Assembly (NCBI GenBank): GCA_010356995.1
Contig: ML996698.1
Location: forward strand, 121,923-185,922
DNA from: Trichodelitschia bisporula
Lineage: Eukaryota
Length of the DNA stretch: 64,000 nt
Direction of reading: 5' to 3'
The notes under the pieces were generated by a model. The model worked only from the letters and a program-made list of their open reading frames with translations, made no database searches and was not told where the DNA came from. Shown here in pieces: positions 9,193-58,210 of this stretch (within the stretch, counting starts at the first letter, position 1; the number at the start of each line of letters is the position of its first letter). The position numbers and the translations under genes were made by a program.

Positions 9193-9265
<73 letters not shown>

Positions 9266-38100: not shown

Positions 38101-38308
38101 TGCCAAGCCTTACGGAGGCGGGGTCCAGTACCATTTTATACTCTCATAAAGAGCGCGCACAACGCGGTGCTCGGCAATAAGGAAGAAATCATCGAAACGA
38201 GCACAGCTTGCAGTTCAGAGGGAAATATGATATCGGATCTTTTGCGTAGAACGGAGACGAATCGTGAATACAGATCCCGCATGACTATGCCATAGAAAGC
38301 AGCTAATA

Positions 38309-39424
38309 CTACATTACAATACAACAACCTCCTCCAGATTCCTTCGTCTTTTGTACAGGTTTGGCACTTGATGAAGGCGTCCGAGCAGTAGGGGGCCGAG
38401 CAGTCCGCGGTCGAGCAGTGGAGGGTCGCGCAGTGGGAAGGCGAGCAGTGGAGCCGCCAGCGGTTGGGGGACGAGCGGTGCGGGTGCGAGAGTGAGACCG
38501 GGCACTCGGGGGACGATTAGACCGTGACCGTGGCCGAGCAGTTCCTTGTCGCGTTGACCCAGGGCGATCTTGAGGCGCAGGGGCAATATAGCCCGAAACC
38601 AGGGCCTCCATCATACGAGTTGTGACGACAGATGCCCTTGAGTGAATCTTCTGTGCGCCGAAGTTTCCGCCCGTATTGTCGCCAGCTTCGATCAGCGCCG
38701 GCCATACAACGAGGGCCAAATGGGTACCAGTGGAGCGGTCCCACTCCCTCTGGGGTATGTCGTATTCATCCATACCCAACGTCGGTCGAAAGCGCTGCGT
38801 AATCCGATTTTCACCCAGAGCCGTTATCATCAACAATGGCCATGTCTTGAGGAAGTAGTGCGAGACTTGCTTTTGAAAGTCTCGGTCGAGGCTCACGGCG
38901 GTTTCAACCGCATTGCGAAGTTGATGTTCCAGCGGACGTGATATTTCTGGAAGATACCTTCGTATATCGCCGACCAGGTCGTCCTGAAGCATGACAAGCA
39001 AGTCTTGTCGAACTTCGGGCTGGACTTCGTAATCATTGGCCAGCCGCCATCTTCGCAATTGGAGCTCTGCTTCGTCGTTTCCGGTACCTAAAGTATGAGT
39101 CGCTGGGGTGATCTAGGGGAGAATACACATACTTTCCAAAAGCCCCTCATGCGACCTTTCGGTCCGCCAGAAGAAACCTGAGCCGGCTCTCTCGTCTCCG
39201 AAGACATTTCCCGTGAGAAAGGCCCATATATATCCAATGATGAAGGGCAATCGGAGCTCTGCGGTGTTGAGGCAGTATTGAGCATCAGGGGAAACAGTTC
39301 CCAGCATCCACGCATTATTTGTGCCTGTTTGTCCGAAGCCGGCGAATTCAGCGGTGACAGCTGCCTGATCGACTTTGCCTCTGAGGTCATAATATCGGGC
39401 TGTAAGACCAACGACATCTCCCAT
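38309..39424 (-). CDS. Uncharacterised helical protein with C-terminal CaaX box (GGGCCIVM*); intron 39088-39132
   Basis: The GTATGT...TAG intron joins ORF 39113-39424 to ORF 38309-39058 in frame (356 aa). Motifs YIWAFL...VF...FFW, LRRWR, AVSLD..F..Q, LVVWPAL...G...G.NF; (TARPP)n tail. Confidence 0.7.
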
Positions 39425-40241
39425 TTTTTATCCATGGGGGCTATGAAGAGCTGAGGCCAAACACTGCTATTGGTCAGATTCGAACGAGCGAAACGGGGGG
39501 AGTATTGTAGATACCTAGGTTTCTATCATTGAAGCCGAGCAAAGCGAGGCAAAGCGAGGCGAATATTAATAGTCAGGAGGCTAGCAGTGAGCCGGAGCTA
39601 ATGACTACAGAGCTAGTATCAGCTACCCGTACCATAGTACACGTGCACTACCATACGGTAATTAGCTCCCACTGTAGCCAATCATCTGCGATAAAAGAAG
39701 CAGAGATTATTGATAGATAACGCCATTTTTTCGCATAGCTCCTTGGCCCGTTTCCTAGGTAACGCGGCGTGCACGGGAACCGGCGGAGCCGTACTGTACA
39801 GCGTACCACAGTACTTCACCATGCACCGTTTGGTACGACGGTTGAACGCACTACAGTGGAGAGTGTTACTAGGCCACACTATCCGTAGATGGGTCAAGCT
39901 GGATGCTTCTCCATTGCTGACGAGAAGAATGCCATGCGAGAATCTGCAGTATCTAGTGATGAGAAACAAGCACGCTAGCAATGCCAGGAATGAGCATTCC
40001 GAGTCACTTGTCGAAATAGACGTTCACACTCCTGGCATCTGAAGGACAAAAGAATTTGGTTTCTCGCGAAGGGTTCAATCGCCATCAAAATGTTCCACAA
40101 TACAGCAAAGTTCCACCTTGCGTCACCGAGCTCGTTAGACTCCAAGTTGCAACCAACACGCGGCGTACGAAAACATCCAGTCCCTGAGGATATATTCAGG
40201 GATCCGCGGCAAATTGATATCCTCAGAGATTGCCAGAATTT

Positions 40242-43200
40242 CTATTCTATCATGCTGGGAACAAGGGACAGCAGGGAAGGAAACACTGCTCCGGTATGAC
40301 GCAATAGTAAGCTCATATCTGCTAGAGGTTCGTGGACGGGCACACTTTCCGAATCCGAAGACGTTGCAATGTACTGCTCAGATATCAATTATTTAGATGC
40401 ATAGGGAAGGGGGCAGGAAACTTACACTCGTTTGCTGCGACAGTTCATCCTCTGCATCAGTCAGGTCAGCCAATGTGGAATCCTCAGTCTCTGCAGTTCC
40501 GTTTATACCTAGAACAAGAAGGTTAAATTAATTCTGGACATCAAAGCGCGAGAAGTGGAGACTACAGAACTGGTGCAACATACGAAGTTCCGAATCGTCC
40601 AGCATGATTCGGCGCGGAAACCTGCTGAGAGAGTATCGATTCAGAGGCTTGCCAGGCGACGTAAGCAGCAACGACATATCAACCTGGGCATTTTTCGTGG
40701 AGACTGCCAGGTTGCGGATGATTACATAGGGGTCTCGTCCAGATATCATCCGCTCAACAGTTTCCTCAAGCTCAATCTGTGAGAAGGTCAGATTTCTCAA
40801 AGCGCCATCAGATCAAGTAAGACCCGTATCCACAAATACTAGGACTCGCAATCGTTTCATGCACCTTTTGGAGACAAGTGTACTGACCTTTTGAATAGTG
40901 TTTCCGCTTTCTCCACATGTGCACTCTCGAACTTCGAGAGACAGTTTCACGCCAGAGCGTTGCCGTTGTACGAGAAAAGTACCTAAGGCTCTGATATAGT
41001 CTTTGCGCTCCCTCAGGCGACAAACAACTTTTCCTTTTCGCAAAGCGAGTAAGCGACGTAAGAAATGGTGGGAGGGCCGAGCATATACCCGTTATCTTGT
41101 ACCCAGAGCCTTCACCGGTGGGCACCGGTAAGGTCGAGGCTGTGAAGAAGAATAGACTGGCAACAAGATTCATCACTATCCTATCAATGACTGTAAGTTG
41201 AGTGTCCAGGTAGCTCTGGGTTTGGCGCTGGATGCGGTCAAAGTGCTTCATTGCGTTGGTACCGTGGCTTGGATCGATCGAGAGTCTGGGGTTGATTCGA
41301 ACGTAGCGTTCTCTCAGCTGACGTGCCGCATTTTCTCGATCGCTGACCAGGAAATCTTGCCACATTGACTCCGCATCTGGAATATCAGGCAAGCGAGATT
41401 CCTGCTAACCCCTCAGTGGATTTCGCAACACTCATGGAAACACGTACCCAAAACTTGGGGCCTTTGCGACTAGAGTGTGTAGTGGGGCTTATCCTGTCGT
41501 CAGGACTGACGGGTTCGGTGCCATTGTATCCGGAACCGATTGAAAGCAGGAGGTCGGGATCAACAGCAGCTACATCAGTCCATATTCTTCTCATCTCTGC
41601 GTCGACAAGTTGTATCGGGTTGTTGTAGCGCAGCGTGCCATCCAGATAGCTTCGATGTGTTCTTGAATGTGTGAAGGACTTGAATAGTCGAGGAAAGGCG
41701 GATGCGGCTGCGCCCGCCTCCCATACCTGCAATTCTGATCCGCGATCATCAGGCCTGTGGAGTTCATAGTCGCCAGAAACGCTCCCGGAATGGCTGTAAT
41801 TCGCCAGAAGGACTGGTTTCCGAGTTATTTGGTCGGTTGCTGTTACGGCGACTTTGACATTGCTGTGAGTTCTGCCCGGTTCGTCACGTCCGAAAAGGGC
41901 AGTGCATCCTAAGCTTGTTTTCAAAGTCTCATATAGAGGAGTGGTCTTCAAAACGCTCCTATGGCGGAAGGGCACTAATTTGCTGATGCCGGGAACTCTG
42001 AAAAGCACACGGGGCCTGAAGGCGTTATCGCGAAATGTATCCTGGTCTTCGAGGCATTCACCGACCGTTTTCTCCCGGACGCCGAGGCTGAGCGCTAGGA
42101 TTGCACCGGCACTAAAAAGAAGTCAGCAAACTCTACCCGCATTAAAAGACAGTCTGCTTACCCGGAACCAACCATCAGATCGAAGAAGGCCTGTATGGGG
42201 ATTTCTGATGGAAGTTCCCTTTGAAGGGCGCGGAGAACTTCCAACTCGGCAATAGCGAGAACCCCTCCGCTAATCACCGATTAGCTTCTAATTAGGTTCG
42301 GTCAAAAAAGAGTACTTACCCATCGAGACTCAGCAATCGTACACCCGCCTGCTCTGGTTTGAACCGGATAACATGCACTTCCGGTGCCGCACCCGATGAA
42401 GACGCATGGAGGGGGCAGCCCGTTAGCGTGACTTCATTGTAGGTATGCAGCTTGTTTCCTTGGGCCTGAACACACTTTGTGCACAGTACATGTCCACAGG
42501 CCAGTGGATGCTCCGGAGCAGTTGCCAAACAACCAAGACATGTGGTCTGGCTAAAGAATTTGGGCCACCCTAAGTGAAAGGCTTGGAGGAAACGATCGAT
42601 TTTCTGCGAGTGCAAGGGCCATATGTCGTCAAGACCTTCACGGGTAGGGCCAAAGGAAAGCCGTGTTTTCAAGTCGTCTTGGATGCTGGATATGGCCTTC
42701 CTGATAAGGTCGATCCATTCGTCAACCCTCGAACTCGAAAATCGGGGGTCTGGTTGGTAATCGCCTCGTTGGATGATGCGCCCGTCACAGTCTTGATGGC
42801 CTTTCAGGCCGTGGATTAACTTGACATTGACGCAATGCCTGTCTCCCTTGCTGAAGCCGCATGGCCAGTATTTATCGCAAAAGGTAGTGAAAGCATCCTC
42901 AAACGATGACTGGTATTGGCGAAAGATTTCAGAGTCGGTCGCCCATCCTATTTGCAGTTAGCAGGGCACACTGACTGGTAATTTCACGTCCGCACCTTGT
43001 TTGCGCACCCTCACAACGTCTAAGACAACACAAGAGGCCACCAGTTCGGTGAATGTGTTGTAGATGTCTTCATCCTTAGCCCTATCCCGCGCATCACAGA
43101 TACAGAGGGCAAGCCGCACAACGTGGTTGGCGAAGTTTTGCGGGATCGGATTGAGCCTGAGGGATACCCTGACAAAGTTGAAGGGCTCGTTCAGTTTCTG

Positions 43201-44711
43201 GGTGAAGTGGTCAAGGGCGGATCGCAAGTACACGTTAAATGTTTGTGCTTCAAGAAGCATGTGCGCTTTTTGCTTTGCCTTGTTGGACTCCTCGCAGCCA
43301 TCTTGGATCTTTTGCCTTAGCTTGCCGAGTTGCGTATTTAAGCGACTGTATCTGCCATCGGTCGCTGCTGGAAGTCGGACGACAGTAAATGAAGAATAGT
43401 AGCGCAGGATGAGGTCTTGGATAGTCTGATCTCTTGGTTCTGTGGTGCCAGCTTCCGGTGCGCCAGCGGTGCAACTCACATTCAAGTCGGCCATAAGCTT
43501 CTGTGCATGCCTTGTAGGCAAATCGTTGACAAGAGCCAGCAGTTCATCCCTTGTCTTATTAGTATCCCATTCGTCGTCAGGATTTTTGCGGGAAGGCGCT
43601 ACGGCGTTCAGAGCTAGAATAACGTGCGGAAGAGTTGGCTGGTTGACCGATGTTTCAAGAGAGTTTGCACCCCACTCAATCAGATTGTACAAAGCATCTT
43701 GGAAGGTCCTAAAAATCATTAGGCTGAAGAGCGACTGATGGAAATGGCCCTTACTTTGGATTCTTGCATACATAAACGACGACAGCAGAGAATGCGTATA
43801 GCACGCGTGGGTACAGGTGGCCAACAGCGAACCGTCTGTCGGAAACTGATACGCCCGGCTGCATCCTGGATGGTGGCTTGCTCAGAGAGTCGGGTCTGGC
43901 CCATTGCAAAACTCGTACACGGCTTGCAGTAATTAGAGGATCATGGTCGTCCGGCTCGCGTCGTCGGTTGGCCATTGGCGACAAGTCACCGCCCTTCAAG
44001 CCTTCGCAGTCGACGTACAGAATGGGCTGGTCCTTGTCGTACGAGTCGGGGTCAGCATACAGGTGAACGTCAGCTGATATGGGAAGTGTATCGTTCGATG
44101 CATCCACAACAGGAGTCGGAAACTCGTCCCCGGATAGGCGACAAGACTCAATAAGCATTCTGATTAGAGTGCTCTTGCCCGCTCCTGTGAAGTATGGTGT
44201 TAGCACATCCCCACATATACATGATGAACTCACCTGTCTCGCCCACAAACGACACAAGTTGTGGGTACTTCTCAGGCGAATTGGCCTTAATGTTTCGGGT
44301 GACGATATCGGTGTATGCATCGAACTCTTCGAGGACGGGGGTATCCGAACCGTTCTGTCGCCATCCTTCACCAGGTTAAAACATGCGGCGCAGGGGAACA
44401 AGATGGTACATACCTAACCACTTTGTCCGTTCGTCGAGTATGTGGGCATTGTCGTCACTCGAGGCGTGGAGGATCTTGTGGAATCTGTCATGCAGTAGGG
44501 GGTTTTCCTTCTCGTGCACTTGCGGTCCGCGTGACTTTTTGCGATGAGCTTGTTGTCTGTCCCAGCAGACATCACATAAACGAAGGTTACAGTTCGGACA
44601 GTACGACACGGGGGAGTCTCCGGGTTTGCAATCATCCCCCTCACACAAAATCGCATCTGTATCCACCGAGTTCTCAGAGTTCTGAACGTCCAGGGAGCTA
44701 CTGGAATCCAT
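40242..44711 (-). CDS. Multidomain protein, copy 1: B-box-like finger + GBP/atlastin-like P-loop GTPase + RING-like finger + patatin (catalytic Ser absent); about 12 exons
   Basis: Hand-spliced with GT-AG introns: CPNC..LCDVCW...H; LVSFVGET|GAGKST; DCEG; WPC...CVN...H..KGHQ; CLGC..CGHVLCTKC..CPLH; LLSLDG|GGVL; MVGSG|AG; VWEAGAA.SA.P; YLDG..NNP; LLSIGSG. The last two exons (40508-40426, 40373-40242) are less certain. Confidence 0.85.
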
Positions 44712-45961
44712 CTGCGCCTTGGTAAACGATCCGACAGGGCAGTTCAGCACATGAAGTGGAAAAATATGCGGAGTATGTTGATGTTAAGGCGCGGCTAACA
44801 AAAAAAAAGGGGTTAAGTGACGATCCCACTGACGAGAACATAAAACAGATAACCAAGCTCGCTGGACAAAATATGCGATAAGAGCGAACATGAAATATGT
44901 GCCTTTGAAGCAAGATAAACCAAACCTCATACTATGCGGCTCTGCGGGCGAAAGTACATGATCCTTAGATCGGAAGACCCTCCCAGGACCATGGACGTAT
45001 GGCCTGGTAACACGGCAAGCTTGAACCAATATGGTTTCGGCACGTCACAATATTGGGCTCCGAGGAGCTGTAAGTCAGGCAAAAGACAACATAAGGCTAG
45101 ACATCAAGGTCTGGACATGCACCATCCTGCGAGTCATCAGCCTGAGTGCTGTTGTTTTTTTGGGTTGCACTGATGAAGCCAAATTGAATCTGCAGCTCCT
45201 TCAAAATATCCTGTCTGCGTGAATCGTGGCGCAAGCGCTGGCAATAGAAACTTGCCTCCCTCCCCATCCCAGCCGCGATGAAAGGCAGATGCCTGAATGA
45301 CTGTGCATTGAAGACAGCTACAGGCAACGGCGCAAAGCAGCCCAAAATGAGGCGAACCGTGCATCTCGATTATCGCCGTGGTTGACCTAAAGACGAGTTG
45401 CAATATTTTCCATGCAACGTATGGTCCTGTACAAGGTGCAGCTGATGTGAACTGCATGAGCGCCGAATCCGTAGCTGTGCGGGGAGGGTTGCGGTTCGAT
45501 GGCGGGGAGGCGTCGTGCTCTCATCGTAGGGCGGAGGTGTTGTTCGAGTTACGTCCGAGTGCTTCCACATCATTCCAAGCGACCACGCCGACCAACGCGT
45601 CAATGCGTCGCGCGCCTCGGATTGGCGTTTTTCCGGTGGTGGCCGTAGGAGGCCATACCAGGTCATGTGACCGTGATATGTTTGCCAGGATACGACTCTA
45701 CTACTTGCGGAATTGCGATCTTCAAGCTAAGATATCCCGGGCCTATTTTACCCAGTCCGGAGGCCTGCGTAAGGCACGGGTCTAACAATTGCCAAAACGA
45801 GGCATTGCTACGTCTTCAAGTGCGGGCCAACCTTGATTCTGCCACTCCACGAGGTTGCAAACGCGTGTTAAAGGCAGCCGTATGATATGTGCGCACACCT
45901 CGCACCTCTATCATCTCATCAACACCCATCCAAGATTCTACAAGCCGCCAATCCAGCAACC

Positions 45962-46684
45962 ATGCCGTTCCGCATCCGCGACGCCGTCCCCGACGCCTCA
46001 AACACCGATGCCAAGTTCATCACAGCCGCCTTCGACTCATGCATCCCGCACCTGGCCACTATCGGCAGCGCCAGCCCATGGGGAACCGACTCGCTGTCTT
46101 CGGTCCGCCCCAACCTCATCGACCGCTACATCGCCGCCGTCGCCGACGCCGAGAGATACCGTCTCACCAGTTCCGGCCCCCCGGTGCGCGTCCTGATTGC
46201 CGACGCCCGCCTGCCGAGCGGGGAGTACCTCCCTGTAGGCGCGGCGACCCTGCGCGGGGGATACATCTCCAAGTATGTGCTGGAGCAGAAGCACTTGCAG
46301 GACGTAACCAGCAGGGGGTTGGCTGGGGAAGAGGGCGGGTTAATGTTCTTGGAGACTCTCGTCACGGATTTCAGCGAGGCGACCAGAGAGTATCGCAAGG
46401 GTGCCGCGGCCGCGCTGGTGAAGTATAAGCGGGAGTGGGTGGGGACGGAGTTGGGGATGAGTGTGATTTACCTTGACTGCTGGGCAGGGAACGAAGGGAA
46501 GTTGTTTAAGTATGTCACTTTCCTGGAGTGACCCAAGACGCTAGGGCTGAGATGGAGAAATTTACGTGAGGCGATATGCTGACCGAGAGACAGGTTCTAC
46601 GAAGCACAGGGCTTTCAAAAGGTGGATGGGTTTATGTCTGAGGGGTGGTCGGGTATGTTTATGCGAATGGACCTTGGGAAGTAG
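45962..46684 (+). CDS. GNAT family acetyltransferase, copy 1; 1 intron
   Basis: GS..WG, LETLVTD...RKGAA, YLDCWAGNEGKL.|FYE.QGF. The last exon follows CTGAC...CAG and ends at TAG 46682-46684. Confidence 0.85.
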
Positions 46685-47240
46685 GATGCGGAGTAGTAAG
46701 GGTTCTTCAGATAAGCTTTTGTTTCGGAGCATAAATCTGGCTTTCGCAACTGGAATCAGCATGGTGATGTTGTCATCCAGGGGTTGCCACTGATTCTCTG
46801 AGTGAGTAATCGTCGCCCTTGATGGGATGAGTGCGAGTAGCCTTGATTTCCGAGATACCCGTGGGTCAATACTGCTCCTTCCTTCAAGTCAAGCAATCCG
46901 AGCATCACTATCCGGGATAGGAGATTGTCAGCAGGAGCTGGGAGAGTGTGAGATCTTTATCGGTGTGCGTACTTCGAAGGTAGAGCTGCAAATGGGTCAT
47001 GTGATGCCGGTTGGCCTTCGGCGGAACCGTTATCGGGGGTGCGCACGGGCCAGCTTGTCCTATGGGGTTAATATGCAGCGGTAGGGCTGGGCGTTGATGG
47101 GTGAGGGCTGGGGTTGGGGGGGATGGATGGGGGGGTGGGTTGTTGAGCTGCGTTGTTTCTTGTTTTTGTTTCTAATTCTACATTTGACAGCAAGAGACGC
47201 TCCTGCGCCTGTGGCTGCGCGTTTGGACGGCTGAAGTCTG

Positions 47241-48712
47241 ATGGTACGCGGGGCACACTTCACCGGTTGGAGATGGCGGTGGGTGGGAGTATTGGTTTGG
47301 TGTGTGGTCGCGACGGCGGAAGCAGCCCGGCCATGCGTATTCCCTGAGGGACGAGAAGCGGTTTTTGTAAGTCCGCCCTCTATTCTACCCCGGACTCCGG
47401 GGTTCAGGCTTAGGCCGGGGGCGGGGCGCGAAGGGTGAGTGCCTTTAATGAGTGACGGTTACGGGCTGACGGGATAGATGGTCGGATTTGGTACTGGGCA
47501 AAGAGCGGGTGGCAGTATGGGAGGATGGGGTTTGGGTCCGGCGAGGATGGGGGTGAGGGTGAGGGCGGGGCCTATCTGACAAGCGTCTTCGGCGTCGAGT
47601 GTGACGGCAGCCTCACGATGCACCTCCCGCCGGGCAAGGCGCCGGTACGCCACCGTTCCGCCGGCCATCTACGCGCTCGAGATCTCTGTCCTCGTCCCTC
47701 CTCCCGCATGCGCCGGTGGCTCTCCACCATTCTCCCCACCCTCCACCGGCGCCAAACCCCCTCCCACACCACGCACTACGACCTCTTTGCCTTCCTCACC
47801 TCCCCAGTATGGGGTCTCGTCAACGACCGCGAGCAAGAAAGGGTACGCGCCGCGCTGTCCAGTGATGCCGTTTGGGTTAGTAGCGGAGGAGAAGCACTGC
47901 GCACGGCCGGCGAGTTTTAATGGGTGTGGGGCGGAGAATGGGATGAAGGTGCCGGATTTTAGGTTTACGGTTTGTTGTAATATGCATGATTTGTGCTATG
48001 GTAAGTCAACCAGACCCTTGGGAAGAGAGATGGGGAAGAGAGGAGAGGGAGAGTGGGGAGTGATGATGGGATAGAGGCTAATGGGGATGCTCAGATGATT
48101 GCGGTACGCCATTCGAGGAATGCAACGCCCGCTTCCGCGATTGCATGCACGCCGCCTGCCACGCGTACTACGGGAGCGACACCAACACCGGCCCTCCAAC
48201 AACTACCAAACCCTCCTCTACCTCCACCAGCAAAGCGTCCACCACCAGTAGACCTCCCACCACAGGCCCCGCCCGGCGTGCCTCCTCCACCGCCTCTCCT
48301 AGTACCATCCCCCCCTCCACCAAACCCACCGCCCCTCCCCCTCCCTCCGCAACCCAACCCCCTCTCCTGGACCCACTGGGGCTGCGACCTGCTAGCCAAC
48401 ACCTACGCCGAAGCCGTCGGCACCTTATTCGGGGGGTGGTCCTTTGCGCTGTCCACCGCCGACCGGTGCGCCTGCGCGTGTCCCGCAGAGACATTTGACT
48501 GCGGAGATATCTGCCTTAGGAACTGCACCGAGCGCTGCAGCGTGCTAAACTGCGCCGACCCGGCTGTGGGCGCAGTACCAAAACGGCTGGGGTGGGGGAG
48601 GGAAGGTGTAGTGCCCATAAGTAGTGGGAGTGCGGCGCCGAGTGGGGCTAATGTCACGGTTTTCACTTCGGGGGGTAACCTACAAAGTTCCACCGAATGT
48701 ACTGCGTATTGA
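47241..48712 (+). pseudogene. Inverted, truncated, frameshifted copy of the group XII-like PLA2 gene at 8064-10401
   Basis: Same peptides (RPCVFPEGREAVF, FNGCGAENGMKVPDFRFTVCCNMHDLCY, WTHWGCDLLA). It has a deletion after the first donor, +1 nt near 47836 and -2 nt near 48355; homology ends at about 48670. Confidence 0.85.
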
Positions 48713-48997
48713 CTGCAAAACTGGAGCTTCCTGCAAAGCTTGGCCTAGTAACTGGTGGCGATGCAGTTTGCACAAGTTGCATGGACCCTGTGGTCCTCTT
48801 GTTACATCCGTCTTTTATTTACTCTACACTTTGGTTCCTTACATCACCACGTTACCGTGACACCATTGTGTCAAACCAGGTGTCTCTACGTCTCACATGG
48901 CATCACCGGACGACGGATAACTGAAGTACCCAAGCTGGCTGCCAGGCAAGAATCCCAGCTTCCGAGGGGATAGCATCTATATTACAGACGGCTAATG

Positions 48998-51900
48998 CTA
49001 CATCAAGATACATGAGCAACATCCCCCAGCAACCTCCGACGCACTTGTGGATCTGCCGGCCAATGTCGAAGGTCGAATAGTGGTAGGCTGAGCAGCAAAG
49101 GGTCGATCCGTACGAGTACGGGACTGAGACCGGGCACTGGGAGGACGATTAGACCATGACCGTGTAGTTTCAGGTCCCGTCGGCCCGGGGCCACTTTGGG
49201 GCTTGGTGGAATCCGGGGAGGTCCCAAAGTGCTGCTCACGCGTCACGTCATTAGATGAACAGAAAGGGGTGAAGGAGCCTCACTCTTGTTTGCTGTGACT
49301 GGCTGTCCCTAGCAAGGGATGTCTTGGAAGAACACTCCCCTCCGACCCCAGGAATTATGAAGCTCGGATCTCGTGGATGTTCGTTGACCAGCACACTTTC
49401 TGAGTTTGAAGAAGTTTGCAACGTACTATCCAAAAATACATTTATTATAAACATGGAGAAGAGGGCCGGAAACCTTACATTTGTTTGCCGCGACAATGCA
49501 TCCTAATGAGTAAGTTAGGCAGCCTAGCATTCTGGGGCTCTGCAACTACGTTGATCTTTGGAGCCAGAAGGTTAGATCCATTCTGAGCATTACAGCGAAG
49601 GGCTGGAGATGGCCGAATTAATGTCATGTACCAGGTCCAGATTGTCCAGCATGACTGGGCGCGGAAACCTGCTTATTGAGTGTCGATGCGAACCCTCCCC
49701 ACGCGACATGAGCAACGACATATCAACTTTAGCATCCCTCGTGGAGACTTCCAGGTCGAGGATGTACAAATCGAATATCGATCCGTACATCATTAGCCTA
49801 AAGGCTTCGCCAAGCGCAATCTGAGAGAGCATTAGAGATCCCGAAGCGGCATTTAATAAGATCCCTTATCGGGCAGATGTCGGGGCTTGCAATCTTCCCG
49901 TTCACCTTTCAGAGGCAGTCGTACTCACCTTTTGAATAAGTCTTCCGCTTCCTACGCCTGTGCACTCTCGAACTTCGAGAAAGAGTTCCTCACCGCTCAT
50001 TTGCCGTCGATCAAAAAAGGTTCCCAGAGCTTCGATATAGCCCGAGTTGTCATTGAAGCGGCAGATAACTTTTCCTTTTCGCAAAGCGTGTAAGCGGCGT
50101 AAGAAAGGTGGGAGGACTGACACTTACCCGACACCTTGTACCCCTGTCCTCGACCTACGGGCGACGGCGAGTACGAGACTGCGAAGAAGAACTGACTGGC
50201 AACCAGTTTCATCGTCAACCTATCAATGACCTTTGATTGAGTCTTCAGGTATTCCCGAGTTTGCCTCTGGATGCTGACAAAGTCCTTCACTGCAGAGATG
50301 TCGTTGCGTGGGTCGGTCTTCAGTCGAGAACTAGGGTTTATTCGAACGTAGCGGTCTTTCATTTGAGGTGCCGCATTTGATTGAACTGTGTCCATGAAAT
50401 CTCGCCAAGTTTTGTCCGCATCCGGGATACTGCGACCGCGAGATTCCATCTAACCTCTTAGCGGATTTCGCCACACTCAACAAAAAAACGTACCAATTGC
50501 CGGGATAGACGATGACCAGGACATCGAATGGAGTCTATCTTGTCGCTAGCATCAACAGATCCAGCGCCGCTGTGTCCGGAACCAATTGAAAGCATGAGGT
50601 CGGGGTCGGAGTCAGCTACGTCTGACCAAAGATGCTTCCTCTCTGCGTCAACCATTTTTATCGGATTGTTGTTGATCAGCGTGCCATCCAAATAGCTTCG
50701 ATGTGTTTTTGAATGCGTAAATGGCTTGAATAGTGGGCGAACGGCGAATGCGGCTGCGCCTGCCTCCCATACTTTCAATTCTGCTCCGCGATCATCAGGT
50801 CTGTGAAACTCATATTCGCCAGAAGGACTTGCGGAACGGCTGTAATTCGCCAGAAGGACCGGTTTCCGACTTATTTGGTCGGTTGCCGTCACGGCAACTT
50901 TGATGTTGTGGTGAACTCGGCCCGGTTCATGATGTCCGAAGAGGAAAGTTCTTCCCAGGCTTGGTTTCAAGGTCTCATACAGAGGGGTTGTTTTTAGAAC
51001 GCTCCCGTGGCGTAAGGTAACCAGTTTATTGATGAAGGGAACTTTGGAAAGCTCACGTTTCCTGAAGGCGGTGTTGCGAAGTGTAACGAGGTCGTCGGTG
51101 CATTCATCAATCGTTTTCTCTCTGACGCCGAGTTTAAGCGCTAAGATTGCACCGGCGCTAGAAAGAAGTTAGCAAGCTCTGTCCACACTCAAGGCTGGTG
51201 GATATACCCGGAACCGATGATCATATCAAAGAACGCCTGTATGGGGATGCCTGATGGAAGCCCCTTTTGAATAGCCCTGAGAACTTCCAGTTGGACGACA
51301 GGGAGGGCTCCTCCACTGATCGCCGATTAGCTTTGTTTCAAGTATTGCCAGGCAGCACCCACCCATCAAGGCTCAGCAGTCGTACACTTGCATGCGGTGG
51401 TTTGAATCGGAAAGCCTGTTCTACCGGTGCCACATCCGGAGAAAGTACATGGAGAGGGCAATTTTTCAGCTTAACTGAATTCAGGGTAACCAGCTTGACT
51501 CCGTGTGCGTGAACACACTTTGTGCAGAGTACATGTCCACAGGTCAGTGGATGCTCCGGAATAGTTGCCAAACAACCAAAGCATGTTGTCTGGCTGAAAA
51601 AATTCTCCCACCCGTAGTTAAAAACTTCGAGGAAGTTTTCAATATTCTTCAAGTGCAAGGGCCATATGTCGTCAATACCTTCACGGGTGGGGCCAGAGGA
51701 AAGCCGAGTTTTTAAGTCATCCTGGATGCCAGATATGGTACTTCTGATGAGGTCAATCCATTTGCCGACCTCCGGGCTTGAAAATCGTGGGTCCGGCTCA
51801 TATTCACCTCGTTCAATGACGCGCCCTCCAATGTCTTGATGGCCTTTTGGACCGTGCCTTAACTTGACATTGACGCAGTGCCTACCTTCCTTGCTGAAGC

Positions 51901-53817
51901 TGCATGTCCAATATTGATCGCAAAAGGTTATGAAAGCTTCCTCAAACGATGGCTGGTACTGGTGAAAAATTTGAGAGTCGGTTGCCCATCCTCCTCGCGG
52001 TTAACAGAAACACATATATTGATTGTTTAACGTTCGTACCTTGTTTGCGCACTCTCATGACGTCAAGAACAACGCATGACGCCACCAGTTGGGTGAATGC
52101 ACCGTATATGGCCTCATCTCTGTACCTATCCCGCGCATCACAGATGCAGGCAGCGAGCCGAACAACGTGGTTGGCGAAGTTTTGCGGGATCGGATTGAGC
52201 CTGAGTGATACTTTGACGAAGTTGAAGGGCGCGTCCAGCTTCTCGGTAAAGTGATCGAGAGCGAATCGCAAGTACATGTTGAATGTTTGTGCCGTAAGAA
52301 GCATATGCGCTCTTTGCTTTTCCTGGTTGGACTTGTCGCAGCCGTCCTGGATGTTCTCCCTCAGCTTGTCAAGTTGCGTATTCAAGCGGTTGTATTGGCC
52401 ACCAGTTGGGGCGGGAAGTGGGACGACAGTGAACGAGGAATAGTACCGCAGGATGAGGTCTTCGATGGTCTGGACTTTCGATTCTGTGGCGCCCGCTTCC
52501 AGTGAGACAGCGGCGCGATTCACATTCAAGTCTGCCATAAGCTTCTGTGCATGCTTTCCATCCAAGTTGTTAACATAGTCCAGCAGTTCTCGCGTAGCTT
52601 TATCAGTGTCCCATTCATCTTCAGGGTTTTTGCGGGAAGGTACTGCGGCATTCAAAGCTAGAATGATATGCGGAAGAGTTGGCTGGTTGACCGATGTTTC
52701 AAGAGAATCCGCCCCCCACTCAATTAGATTGTACAATGCATCTTGAAAGGTCCTAATAGTTGTTAGGCTGAAAGGTTGTCTACAGAAAATGGTGCTTACT
52801 TCGGGTTCTTGCACACATAAACGACGACGTCAGAGAATGCGTAGAGCACGCGCGGGTACAGGTGACCAACAGCGAATCGTCTGTCGGAAACCGAAACGCC
52901 CGGCTGCATCCTTGATGGTGGTGGACTTTTGGAGTCGGACCTGGCCCATTGTAACACTCGTATACAGCTCGCAGGGGTCACGGGATCAGGGTCGCCAGGT
53001 CGGTGCCGTCGGTTTGCCATTGGCAGCAAGTCGCCGCCCTTCAAGCCCTCGCAGTCGGCATAGAGAATGGGCCTTTCCTTCTGGCACGAGTCGGGGTCAG
53101 CGTATAGATGGACGTCAGCTGATATAGGGATTGTGTCGTTCGATGCCTCCACAACGGGAGTTGGAAACTCTCCGGGTCTGCATCGAGTCTCAACAAGCAT
53201 TTTGATTAGAATGCTCTTGCCCGCACCTGTCGAGTACAGTGTTAGAAACACTTGTACTCAAGTCTAGGAAACGTACCGGTCTCGCCCACGAACGACACGA
53301 GCTGCGGGTATTTCAAGGACGCATCGCCTCCAGCGTATCGGGCGAAGGTATTGCTGTATGCCTCAAACTCTTCTAAGACGGGGGTATCGGGGCCATTCTG
53401 CGCCCATCCTTCACCAAGTTAAACATGTGGTGGCCAGGAAACAGGTTACTACGTACCAAACCACTTCGTGTCTTCGTCAAATACGTGGGCTTCCCCGTCA
53501 CTCGAGGCGGTAAGGATATCGGCGAGCCGTTTATACACTAGGTAGGGTGTCTTCTCGTGCACACTCTGTCTCGGCAACCTCATGCGGTGAGCGAGTTGTT
53601 CGTCCCAGCAGTCATCACAGAGGATAACTTCACAACTCGGACAGAACCACAAGGACGCTTCCCTGGTCGTGCATCCGCCCTGACACTTAGTCGAACCTAC
53701 ATCCCCCGACACCGTATCCACCGAGTTCTCAACATTGAGGGAGCTGTTGGAATCTGTCTCCTCCACGGTGACCGGCTCGATGCGATCCACGGTGTCCGAC
53801 TCGATGCGACGAGACAT
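48998..53817 (-). CDS. Multidomain protein, copy 2: B-box-like + GBP-like GTPase + RING-like + Ser-less patatin, with a modelled in-frame C-terminal CaaX tail (GGCCSCILM*)
   Basis: Same intron positions as copy 1; VGET|GAGKSI, DCEG, CFGC..CGHVLCTKC..CPLH, LDG|GGAL, IIGSG|AG, YLDG..NNP. The core to about 49632 is solid. The tail needs introns 49556-49631, 49426-49478 and 49232-49283. Confidence 0.8.
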
Positions 53818-55328
53818 GCAGAAGCCTTAGACGCGAGCAACAGGGCAGTTCAGCACACGAAGTGGAAGAAAATGCGGGAAATGCCAATATCAAGGCGCGG
53901 CTGAAAAGAAAAGCGGCTAAGTGGTGACCACACTGACGGGGCATAAAAACGGATAAACCAAGTTCGCTGGACAAAATATGAGGTGTCAGCGAACATTGCA
54001 TTTTTGCCTTACGCGCATTTAGAGTAAGATAAAACAAGCCCCATCCCGTGCGGCTCTGTGGGAGGAACGTACCTCGTAGAATGTTCCAGCCGACTGCATA
54101 ATGCAGCGCTTTGCTGTGTCGTGCGTTGCTGTGTACGATAGCGCGTCCTGCGTGTCACCTTCAATCGGATCAGCGTTCTTCCGGTCCGTGCCAGCTTGAA
54201 CTGCGGGCAGTTTTCTCCAACAAGAAGACTGCACTCCACACCATCTTCTGCTGTATGCCCCGGGCGCCGTCGACTGTACACGTTTCCTCCATCCGCAGCT
54301 GCGCGGTGGACGTTCCAACCAATGTGATAAATTTCTTCGAGTCCACGTTTACCCTTCGATGGCCTTGGTGTTGCAATAGGCTAAATGATGCTGCAACGAT
54401 GCTGGGAACCTTGCTCCATGCTTAGTTAAGGGTGGGCCCGGAATCTGGTGGACCAGAACCTAAGGTATCTCTCTTTGGTGCTTTTGGCTGTGCAAGCTCA
54501 GTGAGTGGTGCACCGAGATAAGAAAGAGATTTCAGCTCTCAGCAACTCAAAGGAATCTAACAATCCTGTTTGGTGTAGTCCCGGCTTTCGGATGTACCCG
54601 TAGACCGAGTCCAGGCATTCATCTATCACTCGCTTTGGTCGGATTTGTCGTCGTGAAATTGTCAGTCAACAGCGAGGAAACGGCCTCATGCAGATCATTC
54701 AACAGCTTGTGTTTTTTGCCCACGTGGCAGGCAGTCCGCCATACCGTCTCAGCCTTGTCCGCCTCCTCGGGCAGCCTTGTTTGTACCTACTAAGCCATAT
54801 GCGTTAAGCAGAACCTCACCTCCATCCATCCTAGAGAAGCAGAAGTCCCCGATCCTGCGCCATTGTATACTTACATCCGAACCTAGGAACCGCCTCCGTG
54901 CCCGCACTTTCATAGGCCTCATTCAACGTCGCGCGTACGTTACCTCTAAGGTGCAAGCCCGCCCACGTCATCCACAGGCTAACCTAAAAAGTGATAGACC
55001 CTCCCAAAAAGTTGTAGCCGGCTTTTGTCAAACATTTTGCCAAGTAAGAAGCAGAGACTATCAGATGGGGTTCCTTCACTTTTTCGGGTAGCCCTTGGTC
55101 CCTCCACTACGCATCGCGTCACCCTGGTTCGGAGAAATGCTTTTCCGGCGCATGTCAGCATCGGCATTCCAACTAGATGACGAGTTGAAGCGTTTCAACT
55201 ATTCTGACGTAGTAGTATCAATAGAGCCTGGTGTTACTAGGCGCATCCTGGCCGCCCGTCAATCTGGAGCACTCTGTCATCTCACCCCAACCCCATCCAA
55301 GATCCCATAAGCCGCCAATCCAGCAACC

Positions 55329-56052
55329 ATGCCGTTCCGCATCCGCGACGCCGTCCCCGACGCCTCAAACACCGATGCCAAGTTCATCACATCCGCCTTC
55401 GACTCATGCATCCCGCACCTGGCCACCATCGGCAGCGCCAGCCAATGGGGAACCGACTCGCTGTCTTCGGCCCGCCCCAACCTGATCGACCGCTACATCT
55501 CCGCCGTCGCCGATGCCGAGAGATACCGTCTTACCCGTTCCGGCCCACCTGTGCGCGTCCTGATTGCCGAGGCCCACCTGCCGAGCGGGGAGTACCTCCC
55601 TGTAGGCGCGGCGACCCTGCGCGGGGGATACATCTCCAAGTATGTGCTGGACCAGAAACACTTGCAGGACGTAACTAGCAGGGCGTTGGCTGGGGAAGAG
55701 GGTGAGTTTATGTTCTTGGAGACTCTTGTCACGGATTTCAGCCAGGCGACCAGAGAGTATCGCAAGGGTGCCGGGGCCGCGCTGGTGAAGTATACGCGGG
55801 AGTGGGTGGGGACGGAGCTGGGGATGGGTGTTATTTACCTCGACTGCTGGGCGGGGAATGAAGGGAAGTTGGTTAGGTACGTCAATTTCCTGGAGTGACC
55901 GAGAACCCTAGGGGTTGAGAGGGAGAAATTTACGTGAGGCGAGATGCTGACCGAGAGGCAGGTTCTACGAGGCACAGGGCTTTAAAAAGGTGGATGGATT
56001 TGTGTCTGAGGGGTGGGCGGGTATGTTTATGCGAATGGACCTTGGGAGGTAG
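55329..56052 (+). CDS. GNAT family acetyltransferase, copy 2; 1 intron
   Basis: GSASQWG, RKGAG acetyl-CoA motif, YLDCWAGNEGKLVR|FYEAQGF; stop at 56050-56052. Confidence 0.88.
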
Positions 56053-56608
56053 GATGCGGAGTAGTAAGGGTTCTTCAGATAGGATTTTGTTTCGGAGCAC
56101 AAATCTGGCTTTCGAGACTGGAACCAGCATGGTGATGTTGTCATCCAGGGGTTGTCACTGATTCTCTGAGTGAGTAATCGTTTTCCTTGCTGGGATGAGT
56201 GCGAGTAATTTCCGAGATATTCTGGGTCAATAATGCTCTTCCTTCAAGTTTAGTAATCCAAGCATCGCTATCCGGGTAGGAAATTGTCAGCAGGAGCTGG
56301 GAGAGTGTGAGATCTTGATCAGTGTGCATACTTCGAAGGTAGAGATGAGAGTGGGCTACATGATGCCGGTTTGCCGGCGGTCGAACCGTTGTCCCGTTTT
56401 AGGGGTGCGCACAGGCCACCTTGTTCTGCCAAGCGGTCGGGCTATCATCGAATAGAGAGTCATTTCCGCAGTTGTAGTCTTTCACGACATCTTTAACCTA
56501 CTGCGTAGACGCTCTGAGTTCGCGAGAGAAATGCATTCGCCGATGCAAGCTCTTCCCGTCCTAAATGTCAGCGGTCACGAAGCAAGTACTTCCCATCTTC
56601 AAATCCAG

Positions 56609-58210
56609 ATGTCTCCTGCTGCCACAACCGCTGAGCCATTGAATGCAAGACCGGTCGGTCAGATGTGAGTACATATTGAAGGTGGCTCTTTCCTTGCGCA
56701 GGAGAAATGCAAGATGCAGGATTCTGCAAGATAACGAAACTCATGATATCCCAGCGAATCGTATTCCACCAGCCGGCACAACCTTGGCTTCTACCGTTGC
56801 GTAGGACAGACGGCTCGATACACCGTCCCGCGCACATCGCTGAAGGACACGAGCCTCGAATCCGCTGTCGAGCATGCCGTTGCGCAGACCATTCTTGCTC
56901 ATTCCATCCTGCAAGTTGGCATCGTTGGCGAAGAGACACGCACTCCGCACTTTGTCTATCTGCCAGCGATCAACTTGTCGCAGCTCCTGAGCTGGGAGCA
57001 CTTCCAGCTAGAGACCCCGGCCGACCGTGACTCAGTTCTCCAGCGCGTGCTTGAGACCCGCCACTCGACTTCGTGGCCAGACATTTCTCGCCGGCCGGGG
57101 TACCACTTCATCGTCCTTTGTCCCGATGTGGGCACTGCCCTGCCCACGGAAACCCTCACCGTGGATATCGTCTTCGCATACCATCATGGCTACGGCGACG
57201 GCCCCAGCGGCACAATACTGCACCGGACTCTCCTCCGTGCTCTGAACAGCCCAGGCTCTGTCCCGTCTTTCGATCCGTCATCCCACGTCCGGACAATCAG
57301 CACTCCGCCCCCGCTTCCACCCCCCCAGGAAGCACTCATTGATTTCAGAATCTCCTGGCCGTACTTCATCAAGGCTCTCTGGACCGAGTTCGCACCCTCG
57401 TTTCTCAAACCAGCCCCGCCGGCGCCAGCGTGGACAGGTAAACCAATCACCCCCTATCCAGACAACACCCGCATCCGCCTGCTTTCCTTCTCCACGCATA
57501 CCCTCTCAGACATGTTGCAGCGCTGTAGAGAGCACTGCACGACTCTGACGCCCCTCCTCCACATCCTCGTCCTGTACTCGCTGGCTAAACGCCTCCCTGA
57601 TACCGAAAATTACGATGGCGGCTTCACCAGCGTGAGCCCGATCTCCCTGCGCCGGCTTCTCCCCCACGGCGGCTTGAAGGGCTTCAACTCGGACGAGAGC
57701 ATGGGCGTCTTTCTGGTGGGCCAGTCGCACCGATTCGCGCCACAAACGATTCGTCGGATCCGTACACTAGCAGAGGGCCAAAGTGCCGCGGAAGACCTCA
57801 TCTGGGAGCTCGCTTCCTCCTTGGGCGAAGAGATCAAGCGCAAGGTCGCCTCGCTACCAAATGACGACGTCGTCGGGCTGATGAGCTATGTGTCCGACTG
57901 GAACGAGCGGTGGAGGAAGCTGATTGGTAAGAGCCGCGAGAGTACCTGGGAGGTCAGCAATGTCGGGGCCACAGACTTTGAAAAGAAAGGCCCGTGGACG
58001 GTTGACAGGCTTGTCTTTTCGCAGTCCGGCCACGTCGCTGGTGCAGCTGTCTCAATCAGTGCGGCTGGTGTGAAAGGAAGCGAGCTGGCCATCACACTGT
58101 GTTGGCAGGAGGATATCATCTCCGAGGAACTGGCGAATGGATTAGCTGAAGACTTGATGAAGTGTCTGACGGCCTTGGCGCGCACGGGCCGATTTGGTGT
58201 TGTGGTTTGA
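56609..58210 (+). CDS. Alcohol acetyltransferase family (CoA-dependent acyltransferase); intron 56665-56754; possible upstream start at 56531
   Basis: RPVGQI|ESYSTSRHNLGFYRCV N-terminus; HxxxDG motif YHHGYGDG; CR...TTLT; WEVSNVG...LVFSQ. Confidence 0.88.

Follow-up and report, generated by a model that had tools for sequence, protein, structure and literature searches.

A fungal protein family with a GBP/atlastin-like GTPase, a RING-like finger and a mostly degenerate patatin domain, duplicated in Trichodelitschia bisporula beside neighbours of apparently separate history

We analysed a window of 64,000 nucleotides from Trichodelitschia bisporula (assembly GCA_010356995.1, contig ML996698.1, positions 121,923 to 185,922; coordinates below are those of the window), in which a large gene occurs twice, each time beside a small GNAT gene. 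The new element is a previously undescribed protein family that joins a GBP-like GTPase to a RING-like finger and to a patatin domain that appears dead in most members. With moderate confidence, we explain the region as a duplication, specific to the T. bisporula lineage, of an old gene that is widely conserved in Pezizomycotina, together with neighbours that have separate histories, and not as a conserved three-gene system. The small neighbouring genes look like local accidents rather than partners.

Large gene 1 (40242..44711, minus strand, ATG at 44711, stop at 40244-40242) encodes 1280 aa in the 12-exon model that was built in this analysis, and large gene 2 (49590..53817, minus strand, ATG at 53817, stop at 49592-49590) encodes 1243 aa in its RNA-supported form. 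The domain order is identical in both: a B-box-like finger, a GBP/atlastin-like GTPase with a helical domain, a RING-like finger, a patatin domain and a conserved C-terminal domain, after which a disordered tail probably follows. The RNA evidence consists of spliced contigs from two sequencing runs that are not recorded as RNA. All 11 introns of large gene 2 are present as CT..AC joints in these contigs (among 15 of 34 joints listed), and at the 11 corresponding positions the DNA of large gene 1 shows introns with canonical GT..AG borders, which bears out the earlier observation of open frames and matching introns in both copies. The annotated proteins deviate from these models. P0001 is 100% identical to large gene 1 over most of its length but enters intron 7 and runs into an early stop, and P0002 lacks ~324 N-terminal residues of large gene 2, although these are supported by the DNA and by RNA contigs. 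The dN/dS ratio (ω), which had been proposed as a check on a defence module, is 0.40 for the large pair overall, 0.23 for the G domain and 0.32 for the patatin domain, and no domain exceeds 0.76; it speaks against such a module. Across the G domain, the RING-containing mid-region and the patatin domain, ω is 0.23-0.37 at a dS of 0.56, and by these measures both large genes are intact and under purifying selection.

Because sequence profiles gave only P-loop matches, a fold search was needed to class the GTPase. We made an AF2 model (pLDDT 82, pTM 0.82) of the family member P0008, a homologue that is ~40% identical to the window proteins and not itself one of them. The model matched atlastin-3 (Z 19.6, rmsd 3.3 over 253 residues), SMG9 (Z 19.4), atlastin-1 (Z 19.3), GBP1 (Z 18.5), Sey1p (Z 18.4), GBP2 (Z 18.3) and RNF112 (Z 15.9, 9jju), with generic GTPases at 12.9 or below, and Foldseek returned GBP1 (1.2e-6) and RNF112 (3.7e-6, 9jjx) with a probability of 1.00. 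Judged by this model, the large protein belongs to the GBP/atlastin clade of the dynamin superfamily, and the fold of its G domain (Z 18-19.6 against GBP, atlastin and Sey1) agrees with the GBP class assigned by the sequence-only reading. The P-loop GETGAGKS and the G3 motif DCEG (GxxxxGK[ST] and DxxG, respectively) were read in both copies. The G4 motif of GBP/atlastin-type GTPases is [TS][LV]RD. At the expected G4 strand, whose position was judged by eye, the family has ..LNGTD.. and the window copies have ..LNAV.. or ..LNAA.., and the GBP-type RD was not seen in the large family in this reading by eye.

The best structural matches of the large family, atlastin and Sey1p, are ER-fusion GTPases, with Sey1p as the known fungal representative of the GBP/atlastin clade. 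The large family differs from them by its additional RING, patatin and C-terminal domains and by the fact that no transmembrane hairpin was noted; at 11-14% identity, it is not a Sey1 orthologue. GBP1, GBP2 and GBP5 share the G-domain fold with the large protein but have neither a RING nor a patatin domain, and they are interferon-induced, for which the fungal family has no counterpart. The animal protein RNF112 (ZNF179/neurolastin) resembles the large protein in combining a GBP/atlastin-type G domain, a helical middle domain and a RING, but it is brain-specific, shows only ~10-13% identity, lacks a patatin domain and a B-box-like finger, and carries its RING at the N-terminus, unlike the fungal protein. 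By likeness to GBP, atlastin, Sey1 and RNF112, the large protein would dimerise or oligomerise on a membrane in a GTP-dependent manner, and its RING-like finger would supply a ubiquitin-ligase output as in RNF112, for which PMC12012479 describes dimerisation that depends on GTP as well as an activity as E3 ligase.

For the RING and the B-box, the assignment relies on the spacing of ligands and on profile scores that are weak (E 0.002-0.1). The eight ligands of the proposed RING-like finger are found in both copies in the pattern C-x2-C-x10-C-x-H-x2-C-x2-C-x18-C-x2-H, the last of them being His. Pfam zf-RING_UBOX reached 18.9 bits, below its cutoff of 25.2, and the PDB profile search returned TRIM34, TRIM21, TRIM5 and TRAF6 at weak E values of 0.04-0.8. 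The B-box-like finger is a Cys/His pattern at the N-terminus, for which two homologues gave weak matches to Pfam ANCHR-like_BBOX (E 0.06-0.07) and PDB profiles gave weak matches to MID1 and TIF1-beta (E 0.09-0.15).

The patatin domain was identified by Pfam (PF01734) with 65.1 bits for P0001 and 57.0 bits for P0002, compared to a cutoff of 27.7. The PDB profile search placed CapV at the top (8zr9, 8.2e-19), and the PADLOC model for CBASS-type phospholipases matched P0001 with 1.4e-17 and, as the best case, P0031 with 9.6e-42. The NCBIfam equivalog NF041079 remained below its cutoff of 200 for P0001 (48.9 bits) and P0031 (118.6 bits). The patatin motifs are GSGAG and GGGVLA in copy 1 and GSGAG and GGGALP in copy 2; in both window copies the nucleophile Ser is changed to Gly (GSGAG) and the oxyanion Arg is gone, and the Asp is kept (DGT). 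The domain thus belongs to the fold family of PF01734, yet it is predicted not to be an active lipase by the canonical mechanism, which corresponds to the pseudopatatin described before. Among the 58 family members in which the motif region is present, GTSTG is kept in 7, and the nucleophile is replaced by Gly or Asp in 51. Instead of acting as an enzyme, the dead domain may bind lipids or membranes or have a regulatory role, and the Ser-bearing relatives are probably still GTPase-gated lipases.

Among proteins of solved structure, CapV, a cGAMP-activated phospholipase of bacterial CBASS, is closest to the patatin domain in sequence. In contrast to CapV, the fungal domain has no cyclase partner, resides within a eukaryotic protein of 1300-1600 aa and has mostly lost its nucleophile. 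PLP-1, an NLR of Neurospora and Podospora with an N-terminal patatin domain that the sequence-only reading had cited, is like the large family a fungal protein with a patatin-like domain, and a part of PMC10197012 states that this domain is essential for cell death. In the large family, on the other hand, the NTPase is GBP-type and the patatin domain appears catalytically dead, and a Pfam scan of 6 members (E up to 0.1) found no NB-ARC, NACHT, TPR, ANK or WD repeats, that is, no NLR domains. For the C-terminal domain, ESM Atlas pointed to DUF8392 at 0.84, which we treat as a lead only, and PF28431 is listed for the homologue P0043.

The loss of catalytic residues raises the question whether either large copy, or both, could be a pseudogene in decay with residual open frames. 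In addition to the missing Ser and oxyanion Arg, such decay would fit the switch-I-like and G4-like residues, which depart from the family consensus as read by eye, the long branch on which copies 1 and 2 stand as sisters in the family tree (support 1.0), and the copy-2 tail, which is disrupted if a 76-nt segment is retained. It is, however, very improbable, given that frames of 1280 and 1243 codons are open across 11 spliced introns, that ω stays at 0.23-0.37 in three regions at the dS given above, that copy 2 is covered by spliced RNA contigs and that the loss of Ser is the rule in this family.

The sequence-only reading described the arrangement as a tandem duplication that occurs twice in the same order. 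Order and orientation do match, and the duplication is real, but it is not uniform and the duplicated unit is not one contiguous segment. In a BLAST of the window against itself, 40309-44708 aligned with 49360-53754 at 75% identity over 4432 columns (E 0), covering the large genes, and 45906-47061 aligned with 55272-56427 at 90% identity over 1166 columns, covering the GNAT blocks. In each copy, a spacer of ~1 kb lies between the large-gene block and the GNAT block, and the two spacers (44958-45905 and 54073-55271) are non-homologous, with a local score of 15 that equals the shuffle maximum of 15, compared to 104 for a homologous control. As had been noted, a GNAT gene stands head-to-head with either large gene, with ATG-to-ATG distances of 1251 nt in copy 1 and 1512 nt in copy 2. 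The unstranded intergenic region of copy 1 (44712..45905) is homologous to that of copy 2 in 44734-44957 only (75%), and an RNA contig continues from exon 1 of large gene 1 out to 45559.

The blocks also differ in age. Silent divergence is dS 0.56 for the large-gene pair compared to 0.12 for the GNAT pair, which is ~4.6-fold apart, and the introns are identical at 74/84 positions in the GNAT pair and at 417/617 (68%) in the large-gene pair. GNAT gene 1 (45962..46684, plus strand, exons 45962-46509 and 46594-46684, intron 46510-46593) encodes 212 aa, and GNAT gene 2 (55329..56052, plus strand) has exons 55329-55876 and 55962-56052 and the intron 55877-55961. The surrounding block of copy 1 (45906..47061, plus strand), which consists of a 5′ leader of 56 nt, the CDS, the intron and a 3′ flank of ~377 nt, is matched in copy 2 by 55272..56427 (plus strand) with the 90% identity stated above; the 3′ flanks are identical at 326/367 positions, so that identity is 88-89% in the intron and the 3′ flank. 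On these comparisons, the GNAT blocks would be much younger than the large-gene blocks or homogenised, and the GNAT copies have probably been kept alike by gene conversion or arose by late copying. A mobile GNAT unit found no support, as no inverted repeats flank the block.

The assignment of the small gene to GNAT holds by family. Pfam Acetyltransf_1 (PF00583, cutoff 20.7) was passed by 3 of 5 full-length homologues, namely P0072 (24.2 bits), P0095 (23.2 bits) and P0105 (24.7 bits), whereas P0077 and P0090 scored below it; the window GNATs share 74-85% identity with these homologues. Taken alone, the exon-1 frames of the window GNATs gave no Pfam match because the matched part spans the intron, and a PDB profile search with the family reached E 0.3-0.6 at best. 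The protein search for GNAT relatives, which relies on shared 5-residue words and may have missed distant relatives in Dothideomycetes, returned 46 matches, and all 24 named matches outside T. bisporula belong to Sordariales, with up to 80% identity in Chaetomidium. A third copy, KAF2399032, lies elsewhere on the scaffold; the three copies are 88-96% identical and form one clade (100/100) that stands beside Chaetomidium (93/91) inside Chaetomiaceae. Because every named relative is from Sordariales, the GNAT is probably a Sordariales-type gene that was acquired horizontally.

The CaaX items were only partly as described, since the first item ends in CIVM and the second in CILM, but the second item is a tail of ~45 residues and not a copy of the gene. 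CaaX gene 1 (38309..39424, minus strand, exons 39133-39424 and 38309-39087, intron 39088-39132) encodes 356 aa, ends in GGGCCIVM followed by a stop and corresponds to the annotated protein P0109 (KAF2399010). From 38236 to 39084 it is covered by a piece of RNA contig in which no internal joint occurs, and the ends of the contigs lie 5-41 nt upstream of the ATG. Of its homologues, P0110 has the ending CCCIVM and P0111 the ending CCCNVM, each with extra Cys residues before CIVM or CNVM, and ESM Atlas returned only unnamed Ascomycota clusters (0.89-0.90); the gene is a member of a tiny Dothideomycete family. The large gene-2 transcript closes with CaaX tail 2 (48998..49231, minus strand) as its last exon, which reads GGCCSCILM before the stop, and an RNA joint supports the intron 49232-49283 just before it. 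CaaX tail 2 is homologous solely to the tail of CaaX gene 1, and the similarity of the two items is limited to 65 nt (38468-38532 and 49100-49164, 83%) in addition to the ~45 tail residues. The second CaaX copy may have been deleted down to its tail, and the 3′ end of the transcript of large gene 2 would now contain this remainder.

Removal of the 76-nt segment 49556-49631 by splicing would extend the frame of large gene 2 to 48998 and yield 1380 aa with a CaaX end; no assembled RNA contig supports this isoform among the 15 of 34 joints listed. Such an optional form would share its ending with GBP1, which is farnesylated at its C-terminal CaaX (entry 6k1z). The product of large gene 1 has no CaaX end. 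A model in which this gene ends in the CaaX exon was rejected on two grounds, the stop of its frame at 40244-40242 and the RNA contigs of CaaX gene 1, which end just upstream of the ATG of CaaX gene 1 itself.

The large family is distributed differently from the GNAT. Its search gave 62 matches, of which the named ones come from Mycosphaerellales and other Dothideomycetes, from Leotiomycetes and from Sclerophora, mostly with one match per species, and members in Mycosphaerellales are 75-84% identical to P0008. This conservation and the mostly single matches count against the proposed defence module. No third large paralogue was found among T. bisporula proteins of 168-2000 aa.

The sequence-only reading had interpreted the region as a co-regulated three-part module for defence or membrane surveillance, duplicated as one unit, in which the large protein would act at the membrane as a targeted sensor or scaffold, with the GNAT as its modifier or antidote and the CaaX protein as a partner. 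Gene order and orientation in both copies, the coverage of all parts by RNA contigs, the immune-like combination of a GBP fold with a CapV-like patatin and the position of a third GNAT near a third CaaX-family gene agree with it. However, the named relatives of GNAT and large gene have no species in common except T. bisporula, and 0 of 8 environmental large-gene loci carried a GNAT or CaaX relative, although only L004 (2.7 kb upstream) and L005 (1.7 kb) could show a GNAT at the spacing seen in the window. At L004, the sole environmental locus with both flanks visible, the neighbours of the large gene are TRAPPC10 and Spt4. Together with the unequal age of the blocks and the non-homologous spacer between them, the reduction of CaaX copy 2 to a mere remnant, the absence of a detected third large paralogue, the ω of 0.40 and a neighbourhood of housekeeping-type genes without NLR or HET genes, these results leave a co-evolving three-gene module unsupported, and we give it little credence.

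A younger association, functional in T. bisporula and not ancestral to the family, would mean that, once the GNAT had been acquired, selection kept a GNAT divergently paired with each large gene and conversion kept the GNATs identical. The GNAT occupies the same divergent position beside both large genes and is homogenised across exactly the transcribed unit, and the ω of 0.37 for the GNAT pair indicates a constrained protein. We nevertheless regard this association as unlikely, as no large paralogue was detected near the third GNAT, the intergenic DNA where a common promoter is expected is not conserved between the copies, and conversion tracts often stop at gene borders without functional pairing. 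A duplicated old gene with neighbours of separate history remains our preferred explanation. It does not account for some recurrent association of GNAT and CaaX-family genes within this genome, where the GNAT stands beside both large genes and where, on the same scaffold, three accession numbers separate KAF2399032 from KAF2399035, a third member of the CaaX family. In this region a neat, repeated gene order did not amount to a conserved system; its parts differ in age and origin, and one is probably a gene acquired horizontally and kept uniform by conversion.

Full-text searches found no paper that describes a family with a GBP-like GTPase, RING and patatin, and the portions of the 2023 review on fungal immunity (PMC10197012) considered here do not mention 'guanylate', 'dynamin', 'RING' or 'GNAT'. 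Each of three protein types, the GBP/atlastin-type GTPases, the RING ligases and the CapV-type lipases, has a central place in membrane remodelling or innate immunity, and here one protein that is widespread across Dothideomycetes and Leotiomycetes unites them. With its repeatedly lost nucleophile, the family offers a natural series for studying the role of a pseudo-lipase on a GTPase scaffold. It is conceivable, if rather doubtful when all parts are taken jointly, that the family is an undescribed fungal cell-autonomous effector or sensor with a GBP-type switch, a RING ligase and a CapV-type lipase in one chain, that its Ser-bearing members are GTP-gated lipases that attack membranes, that the many Ser-less members, including the duplicated and rapidly diverged T. 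bisporula pair, are membrane sensors, scaffolds or decoys, and that the captured CaaX exon could provide copy 2 with a lipid anchor by the optional 76-nt splice, converging with GBP1, GBP2 and GBP5.

A point against the preferred explanation is that immune-typical domains (GBP-type GTPase, RING, CapV-type lipase) combined with tandem duplication are the expected look of a defence gene. Between the two copies, a PLA2-like, Pro/Ser/Thr-rich gene (47164..48943, plus strand, GT..AG joints 47435-47477 and 48001-48094) does not belong to the duplicated unit; it is transcribed convergently with large gene 2, and an inverted paralogue is located at 8863-10175.

The two large genes of the window, both on the (-) strand, encode diverged copies of a GTPase-RING-patatin protein of T. 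bisporula, which is placed in the order Phaeotrichales of the Dothideomycetes. An exon of copy 1 (42958-43881) has 100% identity to the T. bisporula hypothetical protein P0001 (KAF2399012), and copy 2 is matched by P0002 (KAF2399017). Everything beyond the window is drawn from protein databases, from eight contigs of environmental DNA and from RNA contigs of two sequencing runs, which were presumed to be RNA and proved to contain spliced contigs. In large gene 2, 11 introns were defined by CT..AC joints of RNA contigs, and with these introns the frame extends from the ATG at 53817 to the stop at 49592-49590 (1243 aa). Large gene 1 carries canonical introns of 43-111 nt at 11 homologous places and a frame of 1280 aa (44711 to 40244-40242), and its RNA pieces, 41447-42111 and 44413 upward, begin or end on modelled exon borders. 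The proposal that both copies keep open frames and matching introns thus holds. The deposited P0001 model runs into intron 7 and stops early, and the P0002 model starts approximately 324 residues late, despite intact B-box and P-loop exons. Altogether, five deposited models seem to be in error, namely those of P0001, P0002, the CaaX-family protein P0109 and the two GNATs of 189 aa. An RNA contig that covers exon 1 of large gene 1 continues past the ATG for about 850 nt on the upstream side (44712-45559); it reflects either an exceptionally long leader or another transcript that overlaps it in the promoter region between the divergent genes.

Sequence profiles on the G domain detected the P-loop alone. 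We therefore rely on an AlphaFold model that covers the first 617 residues of the family member P0008 (37-sequence alignment, pLDDT 82, pTM 0.82), whose G domain matched atlastin-3 (Z 19.6), SMG9 (19.4), atlastin-1 (19.3), GBP1 (18.5), Sey1p (18.4), GBP2 (18.3) and RNF112 (15.9), compared with 12.9 or less for ordinary GTPases. A Foldseek search with the same model was consistent (GBP1, 1.2e-6; RNF112, 3.7e-6). Because of these structural matches, the GBP-class assignment is confirmed for the family at the level of the fold, by way of P0008, to which the window proteins are approximately 40% identical. The RING-like finger retains eight of eight ligands in both copies with profile scores below thresholds, and profile support for the B-box-like finger is weaker still. 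The patatin domain is firmly assigned, with Pfam scores of 65.1 and 57.0 bits against a cutoff of 27.7. Its nearest solved relative is the CBASS lipase CapV (8.2e-19), and the PADLOC model for CBASS-type phospholipases reached up to 9.6e-42 on one family member; the NCBIfam CapV equivalog cutoff was not reached by the family members scored. At the nucleophile elbow, GSGAG is read in both window copies, and neither has the oxyanion Arg. A conserved C-terminal domain follows, for which DUF8392/PF28431 is the lead. The domain anatomy first read from the DNA was therefore right: a GBP fold, a RING-like finger and a patatin domain without the nucleophile Ser.

Among known proteins, the nearest architecture is that of RNF112, which combines a RING with a GBP-like GTPase (PMC12012479). 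Atlastin, Sey1 and GBP are nearest in the fold of the G domain and CapV in the lipase domain, whereas the architecture of PLP-1 is unrelated. Neither the titles and abstracts searched nor a term search of the review PMC10197012 yielded a published description of a fungal GTPase-RING-patatin fusion family. What gives these genes their interest is the uncharacterised family they belong to, in which a CapV-like patatin domain, dead in most members, is fused to a RING-like finger and a GBP-like GTPase.

The nucleophile motif region was visible in 58 of the 62 family matches; GTSTG is present in seven of these, and Gly or Asp takes the position of Ser in the other 51 (P0058 fell outside the search pattern at this motif and was given no class). 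A protein of Acephala is an example of a member with Ser. A quick tree joined the two T. bisporula copies as sisters (support 1.0). The pair sits on a long branch and groups with Ser-bearing members, so that its loss of Ser was probably independent of that in the Mycosphaerellales clade, which would amount to at least two losses. Over 1219 aligned residues, the two proteins agree at 804 (66%), and their introns are 68% identical (417/617). Nei-Gojobori estimates for the pair gave a dS of 0.56, a dN of 0.225 and an ω of 0.40, the latter being 0.23 in the G and helical part, 0.37 in the mid region with the RING, 0.32 in the patatin domain, 0.75 at the N-terminus and 0.76 in the C-terminal region. 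On these estimates of selection, both large genes are functional and constrained.

The sequence-only reading had placed these genes in a three-gene unit that occurs twice in the same order. Judged by window self-BLAST matches, the repeat is real and far beyond chance, but it consists of two unequally similar blocks with unrelated DNA between them, and the third gene is repeated as a fragment only. The large-gene blocks (40309-44708 and 49360-53754) are 75% identical, the GNAT blocks (45906-47061 and 55272-56427) 90%, and a CaaX tail of 65 nt (38468-38532 and 49100-49164) 83%. A GNAT gene does lie divergently upstream of both large genes, as proposed; nonetheless, apart from a short match next to the large genes (44734-44957 and 53840-54072, 75%), the spacers are unrelated, with no homology between 44958-45905 and 54073-55271 at a local alignment score of 15, the same as the maximum over 60 shuffles, compared with 104 for a homologous control. 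The duplication is composite, not uniform.

Each GNAT gene, on the (+) strand, has one intron (gene 1, 45962-46509 and 46594-46684; gene 2, 55329-55876 and 55962-56052), which the deposited 189-aa models read as coding. Assignment to the GNAT family is given by Pfam Acetyltransf_1, over its cutoff in three of five full-length homologues. For the pair, dS is 0.12 and ω 0.37, and identity extends to the intron (74/84) and the 3′ flank (326/367), so that the GNAT blocks are either much younger than the large-gene blocks or homogenised. The 90% block spans just the transcribed unit. A cluster look-up found a third T. bisporula copy, KAF2399032, identical to copy 2 at 181 and to copy 1 at 167 of 189 positions. 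Among the 46 matches, all named carriers other than T. bisporula are Sordariales (Chaetomium, Humicola, Thermothelomyces, Podospora, Cercophora and more), the closest being Chaetomidium at 80% identity; the remaining matches are environmental proteins and the two window copies. In a midpoint-rooted maximum-likelihood tree whose bootstrap had not settled, the three T. bisporula GNATs form one clade (100/100) adjoining Chaetomidium leptoderma (93/91) within a poorly resolved, mostly Chaetomiaceae group. Because the named relatives are all Sordariales and the three copies nest beside Chaetomidium, the GNAT is a candidate for transfer between classes, its probable course being horizontal acquisition from a Chaetomiaceae-like donor and then local amplification or gene conversion. 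Dung-inhabiting fungi occur on both sides of this proposed transfer.

CaaX gene 1 (38309..39424, -) is a separate gene of two exons encoding 356 aa with the C-terminus GGGCCIVM; exon 2 is spanned by an RNA contig without a joint, contradicting the deposited P0109 C-terminus, which lies in another frame. Its RNA contigs stop 5-41 nt upstream of the ATG. The family has five matches among 1.84 billion representatives: P0109, which is CaaX gene 1, its T. bisporula paralogue P0110 (KAF2399035, ending CCCIVM), a Glonium stellatum protein (ending CCCNVM), an environmental protein and a doubtful long protein. In copy 2, the CaaX item is a tail alone (48998..49231, -), with which the transcript of large gene 2 ends as its final exon, 3′ of two RNA-supported introns. 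The RNA contig X2 keeps 49556-49631, its 1178 letters between pieces equalling the genomic span minus four known introns, and this retention leads to the stop at 49592. GT and AG bound this segment of 76 nt, which contains a branch-like CTAAC and lies at the position of the tenth intron of copy 1 (homologous intron 40509-40583); without it, the frame would cross both downstream introns to end in GGCCSCILM (1380 aa). It is thereby an attractive possibility that large gene 2 encodes a GBP-like protein that has captured a signal for a lipid anchor; the visible RNA favours retention. At 48943-49006, where this transcript converges with that of a phospholipase A2-like gene, a non-canonical 62-nt joint of an RNA contig (AG..CA) deletes the CaaX stop codon; the overlapping 3′ ends of the two transcripts were probably joined in assembly.

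A co-evolving defence module, with the GNAT as modifier or antidote, was not supported. Named carriers of the large gene and of the GNAT are disjoint but for T. bisporula. Metagenome contigs scanned with the large-family alignment gave eight environmental loci, in which tblastn queries from the GNAT family (four members) and the CaaX family (three) detected no relative of either, a neighbour at window spacing being observable only in L004, with 2.7 kb of sequence upstream and 2.3 kb downstream, and in L005, with 1.7 kb upstream. In L004, the large-gene relative is flanked by TRAPPC10 upstream and Spt4 downstream. Within this scope, linkage elsewhere is absent, and most species have one orthologue of the large gene, which is conserved; the sequence-only reading had named both outcomes as counting against its module. 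Among annotated T. bisporula proteins of 168-2000 aa, a search for a third large paralogue found none. The accessions KAF2399032 and KAF2399035 differ by three numbers, both lie on the window's own 970-kb scaffold and, if accession order reflects gene order, an association of GNAT and CaaX-family genes could conceivably recur within the T. bisporula genome.

The rest of the window encodes DUF3405, dehydrogenases, a peroxisomal multifunctional enzyme, a PL4 lyase, a Kelch protein, an alcohol acetyltransferase and HsbA, and holds no NLR or HET genes. The alcohol acetyltransferase (AATase, PF07247, 4.9e-22; 56568-58210, +) lies downstream of GNAT gene 2 and has an RNA-supported intron near 56665-56754. 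An assembly gap of 127 N (28518-28644) falls inside the Kelch-repeat gene region. Between the two units lies a highly covered gene with two RNA-supported introns (47164-48943, +), whose product has no Pfam match and shows a Cys-rich stretch, with a CC..HD.CY pattern resembling secreted phospholipase A2, and then a tail rich in Pro, Ser and Thr. An inverted paralogue of this gene lies 38 kb away (8863-10175, -; 79% over 1330 nt).
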